A stretch of 64,000 nucleotides of DNA. Source: Escherichia coli (GTDB taxonomy: Bacteria > Pseudomonadota > Gammaproteobacteria > Enterobacterales > Enterobacteriaceae). Below the pieces are notes generated by a model, which was given only the letters and a program-made list of their open reading frames with translations, searched no databases and was not told the DNA's origin. Numbering within the stretch: the first letter of the stretch is position 1; the number at the start of each line of letters is the position of its first letter. The stretch lies in NCBI RefSeq assembly GCF_041248615.1, contig NZ_CP158426.1. One strand, written 5' to 3'. Both the position numbers and the translations under genes were made by a program. Of this stretch, positions 1 to 46,950 are shown in pieces.

Positions 1-276
1 AACACGTTTGGCATTGATCGCAGGCGTACCATCAAGTTCGGCCTGTCTGCGAAGCAGCGCCCATACCCGACGATAACCATACGTGGGCAGCTCTCCGATA
101 ACATGGTGTATACGGAGAAGCACATCCGTATCATCTGAGTGACGGCTGCGGCGACCATCTTTCCAGTCATCGGTTCGTCTGAGAATTACGTGCAACTGCG
201 CACGCGACACCCGGAGACAACGGCTGACTAAGCTTACTCCCCATCCCCGGGCAATAAGGGCGCGTGCGCTATCCAC
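1..276 (-). CDS. insD: IS2 transposase OrfB (InsD), N-terminal part only; truncated by window edge
   Basis: Reverse complement of 1-276 translates to (M/V)[45 protein letters not shown]...INAKRV; it overlaps the insC 3' end in another frame, as expected for IS3-family OrfAB frameshifting. Confidence 0.8.
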
Positions 277-599
277 TTTTTTGCACGCCCGTATTCAACG
301 GCTTCTTTAAGGAGTTCATTTTCCATCGTTTTTTTGCCGAGCAGGCGCTGGAGTTCTTTAATCTGCTTCATGGCAGCAGCAAGTTCAGAGGCAGGAACGA
401 CCTGCTCTCCTGCGGCCACAGCAGTAAGACTTCCCTCCTGGTATTGCTTGCGCCAGAGAAATAACTGGCTGGCTGCCACACCGTGTTGCCGGGCAACAAG
501 GGAGACCTTCATTCCCGGTTCAAAACTCTGCTGAACAATAGCGATCTTTTCCTGTGTAGTACGCCGTCTGCGTTTCTCCGGTCCTAAGACATCAATCAT
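234..599 (-). CDS. insC: IS2 transposase OrfA (InsC), 121 aa
   Basis: ORF 234..644 (-) contains [29 protein letters not shown]...[10 protein letters not shown]; start trimmed to the internal Met at 599. Confidence 0.85.
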
Positions 600-687
600 C
601 TGCTCTCCAATGACTAGTCTAAAAACTAGTATTAAGACTATCACTTATTTAAGTGATATTGGTTGTCTGGAGATTCATGGGGCCAGT

Positions 688-765
688 CTACATATAATCA
701 TGTTCATCTTCTAATTCTTTAAATTTTAATAGAGAAATCTCTTCATAATATTCTTTCATTTTCAT
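688..765 (-). pseudogene. Short ORF (MKMKEYYEEISLLKFKELEDEHDYM*) with a good Shine-Dalgarno; its stop codon TAG is the first triplet of the IS2 terminus, so it is probably the 5' remnant of a gene interrupted by IS2
   Basis: AAGGTGA lies 5 nt upstream of the ATG at 765; the frame runs straight into the IS2 end (TAGACTGG). Flanking DNA is very AT-rich. Product not recognised. Confidence 0.3.
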
Positions 766-1184
766 ATAAATCACCTTTTATTTTTTTGTTGTTAACACAG
801 GTTTTTTTCTGCACTACACATTATAGCACATAGAATTAATTCGTTTCATTTTCTGTCAATGAAATAGAGTAAAGATAAATGCTTTTATAAAGCACTTATC
901 ACATCCGTTGCCTTGCTATATATAAAAAGTTCTCCAAACTATACTGGTGTATATTTTCCCCATCAGATACAGTTGTTTTTAAACATTACAATGTTGGATT
1001 CTTGGTTCCAAATAAATCGAGCAACTATTAGTGTTTCAAAATGAAGTTGGGAGCTATTCCTTAATTCGTATGAGGTACAAAATGGGGTACTCGGTGGGGT
1101 ACAGCGTGTATAAGTGACGTCACCACGGGTAAACTTGCATCGGCGAGCAACTTAACCTAAGCTGACAAAAATTAAGAGAAATGT

Positions 1185-1317
1185 AACCAAACGACTCGGG
1201 GTGCCCTTCTGCGTGAAGGCTGAGAAATACCCGTATCACCTGATCTGGATAATGCCAGCGTAGGGAAGTCACGGACCACCAGGTCATTGCTTCTTCACGT
1301 TATGGCAGGAGCAAACT
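1185..1317 (+). promoter_or_regulatory. TPP (thi-box) riboswitch in the thiM 5' leader
   Basis: Sequence AACCAAACGACTCGGGGTGCCCTTCTGCGTGAAGGCTGAGAAATACCCGTATCACCTGATCTGGATAATGCCAGCGTAGGGAA matches the well-known thiM TPP aptamer (CUGAGA motif, P1-P5 arrangement), directly upstream of the thiM ATG. Confidence 0.9.
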
Positions 1318-2106
1318 ATGCAAGTCGACCTGCTGAGTTCCGCGCAATCTGCGCACGCGTTACACCTTTTTCACCAACATTCCCCTCTTGTGCACTGCAT
1401 GACCAACGATGTGGTGCAAACCTTTACTGCCAATACCTTGCTGGCGCTCGGTGCATCGCCAGCGATGGTTATCGAAACCGAAGAGGCCAGTCAGTTTGCG
1501 GCTATCGCCAGTGCGTTGCTGATTAACGTTGGCACGCTGACGCAGCCACGCGCACAGGCGATGCGTGCCGCCGTTGAACAGGCAAAACGCTCTCAAACAC
1601 CCTGGATGCTTGATCCAGTAGCGGTGGGTGCACTCGATTATCGCCGCCGTTTTTGTCTGGAACTTCTGTCTCATAAGCCAACCGCCATACGTGGTAATGC
1701 TTCGGAAATCATGGCATTAGCTGGCGTTGCTAATGGTGGACGGGGAGTGGATACCACTGACGCCGCAGCTAACGCGATACCCGCTGCACAAACACTGGCA
1801 CGGGAAACTGGCGCAATCGTCGTGGTCACTGGCGAGATGGATTATGTTACCGATGGACATCGTATCATTGGTATTCACGGTGGCGATCCGTTAATGACCA
1901 AAGTGGTAGGAACTGGCTGTGCATTATCGGCGGTTGTCGCTGCCTGTTGTGCGTTACCAGGCGATACGCTGGAAAATGTCGCATCTGCCTGTCACTGGAT
2001 GAAACAAGCCGGAGAACGCGCAGTCGCCAGTAGCGAGGGGCCAGGCAGTTTTGTTCCACATTTCCTTGATGCGCTCTGGCAATTGACGCCGGAGGTGCAG
2101 GCATGA
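1318..2106 (+). CDS. thiM: Hydroxyethylthiazole kinase
   Basis: 262 aa ORF beginning [33 protein letters not shown]; recognised ThiM; overlaps thiD start by 4 nt. Confidence 0.95.
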
Positions 2107-2903
2107 AACGAATTAACGCTCTGACGATTGCCGGTACTGATCCGAGTGGTGGTGCGGGGATTCAGGCCGATCTTAAAACCTTCTCGGCACTTGGCGCTTA
2201 TGGTTGCTCAGTGATTACTGCACTGGTGGCGCAAAATACCCGTGGCGTACAGTCGGTGTATCGCATTGAGCCTGATTTTGTCGCCGCCCAGCTCGATTCG
2301 GTGTTCAGCGATGTGCGAATCGATACCACTAAAATCGGTATGTTGGCGGAAACCGATATTGTTGAAGCGGTGGCAGAACGGTTGCAACGTTATCAGATCC
2401 AAAACGTGGTACTCGACACCGTTATGCTGGCAAAAAGCGGCGACCCGCTGCTTTCACCTTCGGCGGTTGCTACGCTGCGCAGTCGATTATTGCCACAGGT
2501 TTCATTAATAACGCCAAACTTGCCCGAAGCTGCTGCCTTGCTCGACGCGCCACACGCGCGCACCGAACAGGAAATGCTGGAACAAGGGCGATCGCTGTTG
2601 GCGATGGGCTGTGGCGCAGTGCTAATGAAAGGTGGTCATCTGGATGATGAGCAAAGCCCGGACTGGCTGTTTACTCGCGAGGGAGAACAACGGTTTACCG
2701 CACCGCGCATTATGACCAAAAACACCCACGGCACTGGTTGTACGCTCTCTGCGGCGTTGGCTGCACTACGCCCGCGCCATACAAACTGGGCTGACACCGT
2801 ACAGGAGGCAAAAAGCTGGCTTTCATCGGCGTTAGCCCAGGCCGACACGCTGGAAGTTGGTCACGGTATTGGTCCGGTTCACCACTTCCACGCCTGGTGG
2901 TGA
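2103..2903 (+). CDS. thiD: Hydroxymethylpyrimidine / phosphomethylpyrimidine kinase
   Basis: 266 aa [34 protein letters not shown]...; PfkB-like ThiD, translationally coupled to thiM. Confidence 0.95.
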
Positions 2904-16564: not shown

Positions 16565-16978
16565 GATCGTATGTGCCTTTATGATTGGTCTGTAGATAGT
16601 GTAGAGCAGAAAAGAAAAGGTGGAGTCAGAACAGGATGAAAGTCGGAGGATAAAAAGTCAGTTCAAGTATGGGGGATTCAGTGGTTACCACCAGGAGCTT
16701 GCAATGGGGACAGCGAATACTAACGGCAGCCACCGATAAATTTCAAAAAAGAGCATATACCTAATATTCAACTAAACAGTGGCATCTTCAATATACTATT
16801 AAAAATATATTAACCCCCCCATGGGGTTACCCGGAAGGGCATCCGTGTATGTAATTCCTACTTATGTAGGAAATGTTGTACAGAACATTTATTATAATCC
16901 TATTCAATTATAATAATCATGCCATTATTATATTTAAACACCAGAGCGTGTCGTTGGTATTTAATGGGGGAAGGTGAG

Positions 16979-17296
16979 ATGAAAAAGATAGCTGCTATAT
17001 CATTAATTAGTATTTTTCTTATGTCTGGTTGTGCTGTGCATAATGATGAGACAAGTATCGGTAAATTTGGTCTTGCATATAAAAGTAATATTCAGCGTAA
17101 ACTCGATAACCAATACTACACCGAAGCCGAAGCTTCTTTAGCCAGGGGCAGAATATCTGGTGCAGAAAATATAGTAAAAAATGATGCAGCTCATTTCTGT
17201 GTTACTCAGGGCAAAAAAATGCAGATAGTTGACCTGAAGACAGAAGGTGCAGGATTACATGGCGTCGCTCGTCTGACATTCAAATGTGGAGAGTGA
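16979..17296 (+). CDS. yegR: Small putative lipoprotein (lipobox LMSGC)
   Basis: ORF 16919..17296 trimmed to MKKIAAISLISIFLMSGCAVHND... (105 aa). Confidence 0.7.
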   Translation: MKKIAAISLISIFLMSGCAVHNDETSIGKFGLAYKSNIQRKLDNQYYTEAEASLARGRISGAENIVKNDAAHFCVTQGKKMQIVDLKTEGAGLHGVARLTFKCGE

Positions 17297-17453
17297 GAAT
17301 ATTTTTGGTAAGCGTCAAACATGCGCGTTCTGGTTGTGCTTAGCCGGAACCTGTGCGAGCACGATGCCGTTACGTGAAAGGCATCGTGCTATGAAGAGAG
17401 ATTCTATCGATGTGGTCAATGGAAGACGGTGACCAGGGATAGGGCTTATGCAT

Positions 17454-30856: not shown

Positions 30857-30999
30857 GAAACGGGAAAGCCCCTCCCGAGGAAGGGGCCTTAAATAAGGAA
30901 AGGGTCATGATGAAGCTACTCATCATCGTGGTGCTCTTAGTGATTAGCTACCCAGCATACTAAGACTACCAGGGCGGGGGAAACCCCGCTCTACCCTCA
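30857..30999 (-). ncRNA. Sib antisense RNA (SibB-like), copy 1
   Basis: Minus-strand promoter TTGACA-17nt-TACTTT (31034..31006) and hairpin GCCCCT/AGGGGC followed by U-run near 30857-30887; transcript fully overlaps the ibs ORF. Ends are approximate. Confidence 0.6.
30907..30963 (+). CDS. Type I toxin Ibs (18 aa, MMKLLIIVVLLVISYPAY), IbsB-like
   Basis: Short hydrophobic ORF with SD AAGGAAAGGG upstream; matches recalled Ibs family; too short for the ORF track. Confidence 0.75.
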   Translation: MMKLLIIVVLLVISYPAY

Positions 31000-31184
31000 C
31001 TCCTGAAAGTATGCCTTCACGATAAGATTGTCAATCTGCAGGCTTTGCAGTCTGCGATCCTGCCAGCAAATATTCTTTGCGAGACGTTACGCAATAATCA
31101 CACTGGAAACTATTTTATCCGCAAGTCAGCGATAGACTGCATACAGGGCGAAAGGAGGTAAGCCGACGATTTCAGCGGGACGCT

Positions 31185-31327
31185 GAAACGGGAAAGCCCC
31201 TCCCGAGGAAGGGGCCTTAAATAAGGAAAGGGTCATGATGAAGATACTCATCATCGTGGTGCTCTTAGTGATTAGCTACCCAGCATACTAAGACTACCAG
31301 GGCGGGGGAAACCCCGCTCTACCCTCA
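31185..31327 (-). ncRNA. Sib antisense RNA, copy 2
   Basis: Same promoter and terminator as copy 1, shifted by 328 bp. Confidence 0.6.
31235..31291 (+). CDS. Type I toxin Ibs (18 aa, MMKILIIVVLLVISYPAY), IbsB-like, second copy
   Basis: Same unit as copy 1 shifted by 328 bp; one substitution (L4I). Confidence 0.75.
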   Translation: MMKILIIVVLLVISYPAY

Positions 31328-31513
31328 CTCCTGAAAGTATGCCTTCACGATAAGATTGTCAATCCGCAGGCTTTGCAGTCTGCGATCCTGCCAGCAAATA
31401 TTCTTTGCGAGTCGTTACGCAATAATCACAGAGGAAACTATTTTGGTCACGCGTTAGCGATAGACTGCATTCAGGGCGAAAGGAGGTAAGCCGACGATTT
31501 CAGCGGGACGCTG

Positions 31514-31662
31514 AAACGGGAAACCCTCTCCCGGAGAAGAGGGCTTTTAATAAGGAAAGGGTTATGATGAAGCACGTCATCATACTGGAGATACTCTTAG
31601 TGATTAGCTTCCAGGCTTACTAAGAACACCAGGGGGAGGGAGAAACCTCTCCCTAACCCTCA
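31514..31662 (-). ncRNA. Sib antisense RNA (SibA-like), copy 3
   Basis: Minus-strand promoter TTGACA-17nt-TAATTT; terminator hairpin CCCTCT/AGAGGG plus U-run. Ends are approximate. Confidence 0.55.
31564..31623 (+). CDS. Type I toxin Ibs (19 aa, MMKHVIILEILLVISFQAY), IbsA-like
   Basis: Diverged third unit; SD AAGGAAAGGG conserved. Confidence 0.7.
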   Translation: MMKHVIILEILLVISFQAY

Positions 31663-44708: not shown

Positions 44709-46292
44709 TCACACCTCGTACTCCATCTCGCCATCCTTACGCAGCGGTATAATCTGCACCTTCTGCACGCGATGGCTTTCCACCTGCAACGTTTTGAGCA
44801 AGTAATCCCCTACCTGAACTTCTTCGCCAGGTTTTGGAATACGCTGCAAATATTCCATCAGCAGCCCGGCAATGGTGTGATATTCGCGTTTCTCATCCAG
44901 CGGTAGCGGCACATATTGCACCAGATCTTCCAGTGGCATATGACCATTCGCCGTCCAGGAACCGTCGGCGTTTTTCTGAATATCATGGCGGGCGTCGATC
45001 TCTTCCACTTCGTTCGGTAAGTTACCGGCAATGGTTTCAGTGACGTCACTTAATGTCACAATCCCTTCCACCGAGCCAAACTCATCCACTACAAAAGCAA
45101 AGTGCGTGCGGGCATTACGGAACTGCTCCAGGGCAGGTAACAACGGCAAGGTTTCCGGGAACACCAGCGGCTGGCGAATCAACACCCGCAGGTTGAGCGG
45201 TTCGCCGCGCAGAGACTGTTGTAGCAGGTCGATAACGTGAACAACACCGAGCAAATCTTCTGCGTCATCACCGTCGGTAACCACCAACCGCGTATGCTGA
45301 TTTCGCTCCAGCAACTGGCGGATTTCTTCTTCCGGCGCGTTGAGATCGATATGCTCAATATCGTGGCGCGACGTCATAATGCTGCTGACGGTACGCTGGT
45401 TAAGATTAAGTACCCGCTCAATCATCCGCCGTTCCTGCGGATTAAAGATCTGCTGGTTACCATGATCCACCAGCATGGACGCGGTTTCGGCGTCCAGTTC
45501 CGCATCTTCTTTTTGCCCGCTAAGCAGGCGCATTACCGCTTCGGTAGTCCGCTGGCGCAGCGTCTGGTTAGCGGAAAGAAAACGTCGCCGGTTAAAGATA
45601 GCCAACTGATTGAGCGCCTCGATCATCACCGAGAAACCAATAGCAGCGTACAGGTAGCCTTTCGGAATGACGAAGCCGAAACCTTCTGCCACCAGGCTAA
45701 AGCCAATCATCAACAGGAAGCTTAAGCAGAGAATAACGATCGTCGGGTGACTGTTAACAAATTGCGTTAACGGCTTGCTGGCCATCAACATCAGGCTAAT
45801 AGCGATAACGACGGCGGCCATCATGACCAGTAAATGGTCGACCATCCCGACGGCGGTAATCACCGAGTCGAGTGAGAAGATGGCGTCCAGTACCACAATT
45901 TGTGTCACCACCCCCCAGAACTTCGCACCTTTGCGTTGTGTGGGGTTATTGCTGTCTTTCCCTTCCAGCCGTTCGTTCAGCTCCATCGTGGCTTTGAACA
46001 ACAGGAAGAAACCACCAAACAGCATGATTAAGTCGCGGGCGCTAAAGGTAAACGAGCGAAAGCTGAATAGCGGTTGTGTCAGGGTGACCAGCCAGGAGAT
46101 TGACGCCAGCAGTAACAGGCGCATTAACATCGCCAGCAGCAGCCCGGTAACCCGTGCGCGGTCGCGCTGCTTCGGCGGTAGTTTTTCGGCGAGGATGGCA
46201 ATAAAGACCAGGTTATCAATGCCGAGGACCAGTTCGATCACAATCAGCGTGATTAACCCGGCCCAGATAGACGGATCGGCAATCCATTCCAT
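44709..46292 (-). CDS. yegH: TerC-family membrane domain fused to CBS pair and CorC/HlyC transporter-associated domain
   Basis: ORF 44709..46358 trimmed to [34 protein letters not shown] (527 aa). Confidence 0.8.
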
Positions 46293-46453
46293 AGTAAGTA
46301 CAAAACCTATTCGTTGTATGACAAATGTCACAATTCGATCATGGATAAATCGGGGCAAAAATGCAATGTTGCAGCACTATTTATCTCATATTATTTGAGG
46401 TTTATAACCTCACATTATCCCTGAATTAAAAGTGGTAATAATAAAACATTATT

Positions 46454-46467
46454 TAAGAAATATCGCA
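46454..46467 (+). promoter_or_regulatory. Candidate RcsAB box upstream of wza
   Basis: TAAGAAATATCGCA loosely resembles the recalled RcsAB box consensus TaAGaatatTCctA; the match is weak. Confidence 0.25.
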
Positions 46468-46760
46468 TATGGAGACACAATATTAAATATTGTCAACCTA
46501 AAGAAACTCCTAAAAACCATATTGAATGACACTTAATATAATTCTTAAAAATAGCCAATTGCCGAATTGTTACCTTGCCTGCTATTCCGTTAGCTGTAAC
46601 ACTTCCTCCTGCATTATTGGAGAGCCAATCTTCAATTACCATAATGTCACCTTATATTCGGAAGTTAATTTCCGCAATAACCCTTTCTCATCAACGACTG
46701 TATGTTGAGAGGGTTTTAAAAATTAAGCTAAATCAGTATATTGGTAGCTAAAAAGCCAGG

Positions 46761-46772
46761 GGCGGTAGCGTG
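46761..46772 (+). promoter_or_regulatory. ops element (GGCGGTAGCGTG) within a JUMPstart sequence in the wza leader; RfaH-dependent antitermination signal
   Basis: Exact match to GGCGGTAGNNTG about 180 nt upstream of the wza start. Confidence 0.65.
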
Positions 46773-46950
46773 TCTGGATGCCTGAAAGACCAGTCTGAAT
46801 TATTCTGTCAATAGCCTGCGGATGAAATCAATTTTTTTAGGACTGATGCCAGTTAAATTTTTATTCAATTAACTGCAAGGTAAATGTGCATGGCGACATT
46901 GCTATTAATAGTGCACAGGATAATTACTCTGCCAAAGTGATAAATAAACA

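Follow-up and report, generated by a model that had tools for sequence, protein, structure and literature searches.

Integrases act preferentially at transfer RNA (tRNA) and transfer-messenger RNA (tmRNA) genes and at a few ends of protein genes. Islands and prophages of the first sort, such as the P4-like elements and CP4-57 at ssrA, carry a tyrosine integrase at one end and are flanked by direct repeats. Their target is a conserved structured RNA in which a hairpin supplies the recombination core and the part of the target carried by the element restores function, and they occur as tandem arrays and as decaying remnants, with defence cargo beside the integrase. SXT/R391 elements, which use the 5' end of prfC, and dusA-specific islands have protein-coding targets, and are conjugative or mobilisable with known transfer functions. 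They enter at the 5' end of a transcription unit, for which the element supplies a new promoter and 5' sequence. Here we describe an island that shares these traits of location and structure at a different kind of target. The sequence under study, referred to as the window, is a 64,000-nucleotide stretch from Escherichia coli (contig NZ_CP158426.1 of assembly GCF_041248615.1) that begins inside a copy of the insertion sequence IS2, followed by AT-rich DNA, the thiamine pyrophosphate (TPP) riboswitch of thiM and the thiMD operon. We conclude that the DNA between IS2 and the riboswitch, positions 691 to 1184, is very probably the thiM-side arm of an island of ~11.2 kb that a tyrosine recombinase inserted, by site-specific recombination, within the TPP riboswitch of thiM.

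The differences from the described systems lie in the target and in the gene content. Unlike the tRNA and tmRNA islands, the thiM island hits the aptamer of a cis-regulatory riboswitch and replaces its 5' part and promoter, not a 3' end, and its integrase is without a close relative among 50,697 phage records. Unlike P4-like elements and the other phage satellites (PICI and capsid-forming PICI), it yielded no P4-type primase or replicase and no capsid-redirecting, capsid or capsid-size genes in searches of this lineage with Pfam and PHROG. Unlike SXT/R391 and the dusA islands, it replaces an RNA sensor, and among the genes of this island lineage none was recognised as serving transfer or packaging.

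The position has been recorded before. In a survey of E. coli defence islands, supplementary file 4 lists an 'rcnR-thiM' locus with type IV restriction in E. coli 789, as a non-hotspot of mobile-element type 'None' (Hochhauser et al. 2023, PMC10121019). That locus has the same position as the thiM island, and its type IV restriction matches the GmrSD variant that we found in O104:H21; the entry in this file gives no integrase, riboswitch or attachment sites (PMC10121019). A full-text literature search of incomplete coverage returned no published account of a riboswitch as an attachment site, which is absence of evidence only. The data below indicate a family of small defence islands, rare yet widespread, which integrates into the thiM TPP aptamer and usually rebuilds it. 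Such a family extends the rule for integrase targets to cis-regulatory RNAs and gives a mechanism for the rcnR-thiM defence locus, which the pan-genome survey lists without one.

An island bounded by two copies of the 5' part of the riboswitch

E. coli NRZ14408 (NZ_LT599825.1), which matched the window exactly over the 12 kb tested, served as the comparison strain. The island, ~11.2 kb or ~12.6 kb with IS2, lies between rcnR and thiM, and positions 691 to 1184 make up its last ~500 bp. The features of the window on which the argument rests are the following.

691 to 1184, plus strand: thiM-side arm (P arm, attR side) of the ~11.2-kb island, next to island genes in all 13 carriers
1185 to 1264, plus strand: attR copy of an 80-bp direct repeat, made up of the 5' 80 nt of the thiM leader and TPP aptamer, from alignment to K-12
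1187 to 1283, plus strand: intact hybrid TPP riboswitch aptamer of thiM (RF00059)
1251 to 1263, plus strand: putative recombination core AATGCCAGCGTAG, the shortest stretch that attL and attR have in common throughout the family
1318 to 2903, plus strand: thiM (1318 to 2106) and thiD (2103 to 2903), the native operon, downstream of the attachment site

Homology to K-12 begins only at position 1185. The K-12 empty site, which has one copy of the repeat, aligns to both island flanks with an 80-bp overlap, and the two 80-bp direct repeats of the island are 97.5% identical. The same relation of a repeat pair to a single empty-site copy was obtained in 10 further loci. Since the window's copy of the repeat occupies 1185 to 1264, positions 691 to 1184 are island DNA; the far partner repeat is outside the window, adjoining rcnR and the integrase gene. 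A preliminary description of the window had found no rcnR open reading frame (ORF) near thiM. This is correct, and rcnR proved to be intact ~12.7 kb upstream of thiM, beyond the far side of the island by which it has been displaced.

The base composition of the arm sets it apart. As that description stated, the IS2 terminus at 690 is followed by ~400 bp of ~70% A+T DNA: positions 691 to 1100 have 29.8% G+C (70.2% A+T) against 52.1% G+C for the window as a whole, the lowest stretch in the 64 kb, and only 0.16% of 410-bp intervals are as low. The very AT-rich portion is 691 to 1070; positions 1071 to 1184 have 45.6% G+C yet are still foreign. The G+C content of the entire island is 36.1%. Segment 691 to 1150 was found in 13 of 5426 complete E. 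coli genomes, always with island genes adjoining, and the junction of IS2 with the island in NRZ14408 alone (1 of 5426), which bears out the suspicion that this junction is strain-specific.

The distribution of the AT-rich segment could be read in the opposite direction, as ancestral DNA between rcnR and thiM that was deleted in most strains, with no insertion. Presence and absence alone cannot show direction, and 13 genomes do have the segment. The island of which the segment is part, however, is bounded by 80-bp direct repeats, carries an integrase at one end and has 36% G+C; strains that differ by 2.4% in the flanks share it at 99.8% identity, and members of the same integrase family have this place in the aptamer, with unrelated cargo, in ~20 genera. 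We give an ancestral origin next to no credence.

The strain comparison behind these values is that of NRZ14408 with Q5. The two islands are 99.81% identical over 10.7 kb, against 97.56% for the adjoining chromosome, and on the thiM side there are zero mismatches from 691 to 1340 and ~2.3% divergence from 1341 on. Near-identity of the islands between diverged flanks fits site-specific acquisition and recent transfer.

The putative recombination core and the hybrid aptamer

The aptamer in front of thiM is complete. RF00059 matched positions 1187 to 1283 with 71.2 bits (gathering score 54.3) over the full model length, with helices P1 to P5 intact and thiM following, and the thiM leader of the window is identical to that of K-12. 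The blocks of identity between attL and attR are 26 bp long in Pantoea ananatis (locus L017), 14 bp in Lelliottia (L011) and 13 bp in the ECONIH5 type of E. coli, and all of them end at ...GCGTAG. In the Rfam alignment the core AATGCCAGCGTAG takes in the 3' strands of both P5 and P4, together with the CG bulge and the 3' end of loop L5. Strand exchange would fall within these 13 bp of the P4/P5 hairpin.

Sequence differences between the copies tell which of them arrived with the island. The integrase-side copy of Q5 has TT where K-12 has GC, and TT is a native polymorphism in 936 genomes; the thiM-side copies of ETEC1732 and EC21Z-063 have a non-E. coli leader and P3 loop. Because the TT polymorphism is native and these thiM-side P3 loops are foreign, the thiM-side copy is island-borne up to the crossover and the integrase-side copy is native. 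The hybrid aptamer of the window is thus island-supplied to about 1250 to 1263 and native beyond. A crossover 5' of the P3 loop was also considered, and is ruled out by the same two observations.

Aptamers on the thiM side score 71 to 76 bits, whereas integrase-side copies score 55 to 63 bits or fall below threshold and have a broken P1; thiM therefore retains the complete switch. The integrase-side copy of this island scores 58.1 bits, has 3 of 5 P1 pairs non-canonical, and diverges directly after ...CGTAGG. The drop in score was repeated in 5 other loci. An alternative P1-like pairing, GCAACC with GGTTGC, was noticed in the Q5 integrase-side aptamer and dropped, as it is not conserved in other family members.

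Two further observations concern this site. Most type-A islands (L031, L032, L007 and others) have a strong palindrome, GGGGGCCGAAATTCGGCCTAC, directly after the core on the integrase side, following ...GCGTAGG. The palindrome can pair onto GTAGG of the aptamer P4 strand and may be a core-type binding site or an RNA hairpin; the Q5/NRZ14408 lineage does not have it. Separately, the E. coli genome scan turned up a plasmid record that carries one copy of the 80-bp thiM leader segment.

The thiM-side arm

Three features of the arm outside the repeat were identified, in addition to a small gene, ORF74, that is treated below.

874 to 900, no strand assigned: inverted repeat with a 12-bp stem (GATAAATGCTTT/AAAGCACTTATC), from a sequence scan
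1071 to 1106, plus strand: three tandem 12-bp repeats (TGAGGTACAAAA, TGGGGTACTCGG, TGGGGTACAGCG), candidate arm-type integrase sites
1135 to 1163, plus strand: candidate replacement promoter of thiMD, TTGCAT (1135 to 1140), a 17-nt spacer and TAAGCT (1158 to 1163), a function suggested by conservation

The arm has two parts. Positions 691 to 1070, with ORF74, its promoter-like site and the hairpin, are confined to one island lineage, and positions 1071 to 1184 are conserved family-wide, the last ~115 bp of the arm being ~75% identical to arms from other genera. The motif TGRGGTAC has three matches in the whole 64 kb, all at 1071 to 1106; the raw count is unremarkable, and it is the clustering that is unusual. 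The 12-bp repeats, which recur every 12 bp, are conserved in related island arms, with one or two more copies on the integrase side, one of which overlaps the integrase ATG. The type of repeat changes with the integrase subfamily, into GGTACA, GACACA/CCACA and GGTGATA types. This is the pattern expected of arm-type binding sites, and the repeats are candidates for sites to which the integrase would bind.

Blocks of CTTGC and CTAA(G/T)CTG, which cover the element at 1135 to 1163, are invariant across 11 arms. In 13 of 15 genera the DNA ahead of the native thiM riboswitch has the same -35/-10 architecture, compared with ~0.3 of 15 in shuffled sequences, as judged with a pattern that was chosen post hoc. 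The element presumably now drives thiMD.

A further resemblance was seen in the same part of the arm. Positions 1102 to 1119 (CAGCGTGTATAAGTGACG), which overlap the third arm repeat, resemble the 3' end of the riboswitch (CAGCGTAGGGAAGTCACG) with 72% identity, and the family consensus there (CAGCGTGAAGAAGCGATAACC) retains the CAGCGT...GAAG pattern. This segment may be the remnant of an earlier attachment site, or else a further core-like binding site.

Model of integration and its alternatives

The island boundaries, the repeats, the empty site, the conservation across the family, the target duplication of IS2 and the intact aptamer are direct observations, and the following course of events would join them. 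The island would enter by recombination at the ~13-bp core in the P4/P5 hairpin of the thiM aptamer. Left of the core, its attachment region would bring in the 5' two-thirds of the aptamer, a short leader, a look-alike of the thiM promoter and the three arm repeats. Because the island carries these parts, integration would rebuild a complete riboswitch before thiM, now fed by island DNA; the native promoter and native 5' aptamer would be left beside rcnR, pointing into the integrase gene, with the truncated aptamer deprived of the 3' strand of P1. In this model the family carries a spare promoter and aptamer front end with which the damage to thiM is repaired. In the NRZ14408 lineage only, an IS2 variant later transposed into ORF74 after codon 25, creating a duplication of CATAT.

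The NRZ14408 lineage might instead have received the island by homologous recombination of a larger E. coli segment, through transduction or conjugation, and not through the island's own integrase. From AACCAAAC on, this lineage has a thiM-side copy identical to E. coli sequence, which the arms of ETEC1732 and EC21Z-063 do not; this suggests past exchange with leader DNA of E. coli, and in Res13 the same arm is accompanied by an integrase allele only 84% identical, which points to modular recombination. A co-transferred flank would be expected to extend the near-identity of NRZ14408 and Q5, however, and that near-identity stops 80 bp or less from the core on the thiM side. We consider this route improbable.

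Several points weigh against site-specific integration by a functional element. No attP junction or excised circle was found in viral contigs (searched with one pattern) or metagenome contigs (searched with two patterns), by which immobility is not proven, and no excisionase or directionality factor was recognised in this island lineage by searches of Pfam, PADLOC and PHROGs. Several integrases of the family are pseudogenes, and many of the islands have for this reason probably become immobile remnants. By consensus the putative thiM promoter is weak, with 6 of 12 positions matched, and a simple promoter scan missed 1135 to 1163; the pattern by which its architecture was traced to native thiM genes was designed after the sequences had been inspected. 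Finally, the thiM leader is almost invariant in E. coli, which limits resolution, so that the drop in identity between NRZ14408 and Q5 can be placed only within ~80 bp of the core. On the whole evidence we hold to integration at the riboswitch through a tyrosine recombinase as very probable.

Variants that do not restore the aptamer

The ECONIH5 type, present in 12 E. coli genomes, departs from this scheme. Here the arm ends with ...TTAGA and joins native DNA at ATGCCAGCGTAGGGAAGTC, without the 5' part of the aptamer, and Rfam detects no TPP riboswitch ahead of thiM in this variant. Most island arms therefore restore the aptamer, but not all of them do. In this variant, as in ECONIH5 at L033, 14900 to 15275, thiM is left with the last ~30 nt of the aptamer and the expression platform; the three 12-bp repeats of the arm are of the GGTGATA type, and an IS3 interrupts the integrase. 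The thiMD genes of ECONIH5-type strains may have escaped thiamine control.

The riboswitch might be more than an address, in that expression of the integrase and excision or stability of the island could be coupled to thiamine status. Once the island is integrated, the host thiM promoter and native 5' aptamer always point into the integrase gene, whose start codon lies inside an arm-type repeat. The truncated aptamer before the integrase could bind TPP even so, or could alter folding or termination of the transcript, and such coupling would follow. Conversely, variants of the ECONIH5 type, with the aptamer unrestored, would free thiMD from TPP control. We regard the coupling as a long shot.

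The integrase family across Enterobacterales

A scan of one genome per species gave 25 loci with relatives of the integrase, in ~20 genera of Enterobacterales and at 56 to 86% identity. Nearly all 25 have a riboswitch fragment that ends ...GCGTAG, at the same nucleotide, ~85 bp upstream of the integrase, and every locus whose far end was within reach has a second riboswitch copy followed by thiM. The islands of the family measure 3.2 to 11.4 kb. Among the 5426 complete E. coli genomes, 229 (~4%) have the broader integrase family, and the 80-bp segment is present twice in ~207. In RefSeq records a TPP riboswitch that occurs in duplicate can serve as a simple annotation marker of these islands. 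Conservation of the target in many genera means that the 13-bp core and the small integrase could also be made into a tool for site-specific integration in Enterobacterales.

The slot after the integrase is filled by defence-type genes that vary from strain to strain: Hachiman, TIR plus NACHT, a TIR protein, an ImmA/IrrE set, GmrSD or an ATP-dependent nuclease. Four loci (L005, L007, L009 and L025) have, upstream of their main integrase, additional pieces of integrase genes and of island arms. These extra pieces show that the attachment site has been used repeatedly, with decay of earlier insertions.

The type-B integrase member of E. coli SCU-316 (L038, 14087 to 26158) uses the same site, and its element includes genes for a major head protein, head decoration and tape measure, as well as for a replication-initiator-like protein and another small tyrosine recombinase. 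This element, at the same attachment site, may be a satellite or a prophage in decay, and its head, decoration, tape-measure and replication-initiator genes imply that elements of more than one kind make use of the integrase family. A 6.5-kb contig labelled as a Flavobacterium psychrophilum metagenome-assembled genome (L006, QFQM01000240.1) has an enterobacterial-type integrase, 83% identical, and a thiM aptamer fragment at its start; this contig is probably mis-binned.

Gene content of the island

From the integrase end, the genes of the island are those for the tyrosine integrase, HamA and HamB (Hachiman), a serine invertase, two orphan ORFs, a helicase-like protein and ORF74. The integrase matches PF00589 at 30.7 bits (cutoff 27.1), and the residues R276/R277, K308, H377, R380, H404 and Y414 (R, K, H-x-x-R, H, Y) are invariant in 18 members of the integrase family. 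In NRZ14408 the integrase is annotated as intact, and the island may still be able to excise. The adjacent HamA (DUF1837) and HamB helicase, both present in NRZ14408, are recognised by PADLOC at E = 2e-115 and 2e-295, respectively, and the cargo is accordingly a predicted Hachiman anti-phage defence system.

An origin from a phage was looked for by tblastn of the integrase and the helicase-like protein against the 50,697 phage records, with only marginal hits. Judged by its genes, the island is not a conventional prophage. Two ORFs, of 346 and 119 amino acids, hold the positions of the SCU-316 'major capsid' and decoration genes. A capsid identity for them was considered and rejected: BLASTP gave no match, and the 346-amino-acid ORF is unlike the SCU-316 capsid protein. 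The AlphaFold model of the 346-amino-acid ORF (mean predicted local distance difference test score 76.8) is all-helical with membrane-like helices, and the best Foldseek E-value against the PDB, 1.9, gives no fold match. This ORF is predicted to be a helical, membrane-like protein, not a capsid.

ORF74 and the insertion of IS2

The island gene nearest to thiM is the one that IS2 has interrupted. The features of the gene and of the IS2 copy in the window are as follows.

1 to 690, minus strand: left-end-proximal 690 bp of an IS2 variant, with orfA and the first part of orfB; position 1 of the window falls within the element
234 to 602, minus strand: IS2 orfA, from a profile match to the IS2 TnpA model
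649 to 690, minus strand: left terminal inverted repeat of IS2, ending ...GGGGCCAGTCTA at 690
691 to 695, no strand assigned: CATAT, one copy of the 5-bp target-site duplication of IS2, from the junction comparison of NRZ14408 with Q5
691 to 765, minus strand: first 25 codons of ORF74 (MKMKEYYEEISLLKFKELEDEHDYM), cut by IS2, with the ATG at 765
771 to 777, minus strand: Shine-Dalgarno sequence AAGGTGA of ORF74
820 to 849, minus strand: promoter-like site upstream of ORF74, ATGAAA, 18 nt and TATAAT with a TG extension, a candidate from a consensus scan only

Window positions 1 to 690 are the final 690 bp of a 1331-bp IS2 element in NRZ14408. Over the 1331 bp this variant is 95.5% identical to IS2A of K-12 without gaps, and its ends, TAGACTGGCCCC... 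and ...GGGGCAAATCCA, match those of IS2A. OrfA scores 273 bits against the NCBIfam IS2 TnpA model NF006928 (cutoff 229), and RefSeq annotates the transposase with a programmed frameshift. In its length of 1331 bp, orfA/orfB, typical terminal repeats and 5-bp target duplication the element is the same as IS2 of the IS3 family, from which it differs as a sequence variant only, 4.5% from K-12 IS2A. A query across the IS2 end matched 13 places in the NRZ14408 genome, which suggests that the 4.5%-divergent variant has expanded within this strain.

The preliminary description reported a 25-codon ORF with the Shine-Dalgarno sequence AAGGTGA and an ATG at 765 that ends at the terminal TAG of IS2. The sequence agrees: the truncated frame stops at the TAG of 688 to 690, the last three bases of the IS2 terminal repeat. 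From this it had proposed insertion of IS2 into a low-GC gene, and had suggested a search for the target-site duplication. Both are now borne out. An intact ORF74 (WP_000782271.1 or a close variant; 225 bp, 74 codons) occurs in each of the 12 remaining carrier genomes; CATAT stands at each side of the full IS2 in NRZ14408, the second copy lying beyond the window at the far end of IS2, and the uninterrupted sequence of Q5 has CATAT once. The reading of the AT-rich DNA as a low-GC gene thus stood; it was incomplete in that the site-specific island and the riboswitch attachment site had gone unrecognised.

ORF74 might not be a real gene, in which case IS2 fell into AT-rich non-coding island DNA. 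It has only 74 codons and matches no family in Pfam, PHROGs, PADLOC or NCBIfam; it has a variable C-terminal third of low complexity, and a set of 5.8 billion proteins contains just 7 clusters of its homologues. On the other side stand a good Shine-Dalgarno sequence and a promoter-like site, and its annotation by RefSeq in 12 genomes. The frame is kept open for at least 56 codons in relatives that are 23 to 31% divergent in protein, with 27 invariant residues within the first ~50 positions. On this balance a non-coding ORF74 is unlikely.

It had also been proposed that outward reading from IS2 could affect thiM. Hybrid promoters can arise from elements of IS2's family, and a TATAAT hexamer at 693 to 698 lies directly at the IS2 junction. 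That hexamer, however, is native island sequence without a suitable -35 in the IS2 end, and the promoter scan found no plus-strand site at the junction. Between IS2 and the riboswitch are ~494 bp that include the hairpin at 874 to 900 and the conserved promoter-like element, and the same arm is found in 12 IS2-free genomes, which presumably express thiD normally. The left end of IS2, which here faces thiM, is not the end reported to carry an outward -35. The proposal was left unsupported, and an effect of IS2 on thiMD expression is highly improbable. IS2 lies 380 bp from the arm repeats, and the repeats, the promoter-like element and the core are all untouched. The insertion is an ordinary later event whose evident consequence is limited to the inactivation of the orphan gene ORF74.

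Other features of the window

Elsewhere in the window, positions 30907 to 31623 hold three tandem Ibs-family type I toxin genes between mdtA and yegL, where we take K-12 to have two (ibsA and ibsB), so that the copy number may differ. Two other low-GC patches, of 33 to 36% G+C, were noted. One, at ~16700 to 17300, covers the yegS-yegR intergenic region and yegR; the other, at ~46200 to 46900, is the yegH-wza intergenic region, with a hypothetical ORF of 49 amino acids upstream of the colanic acid genes.

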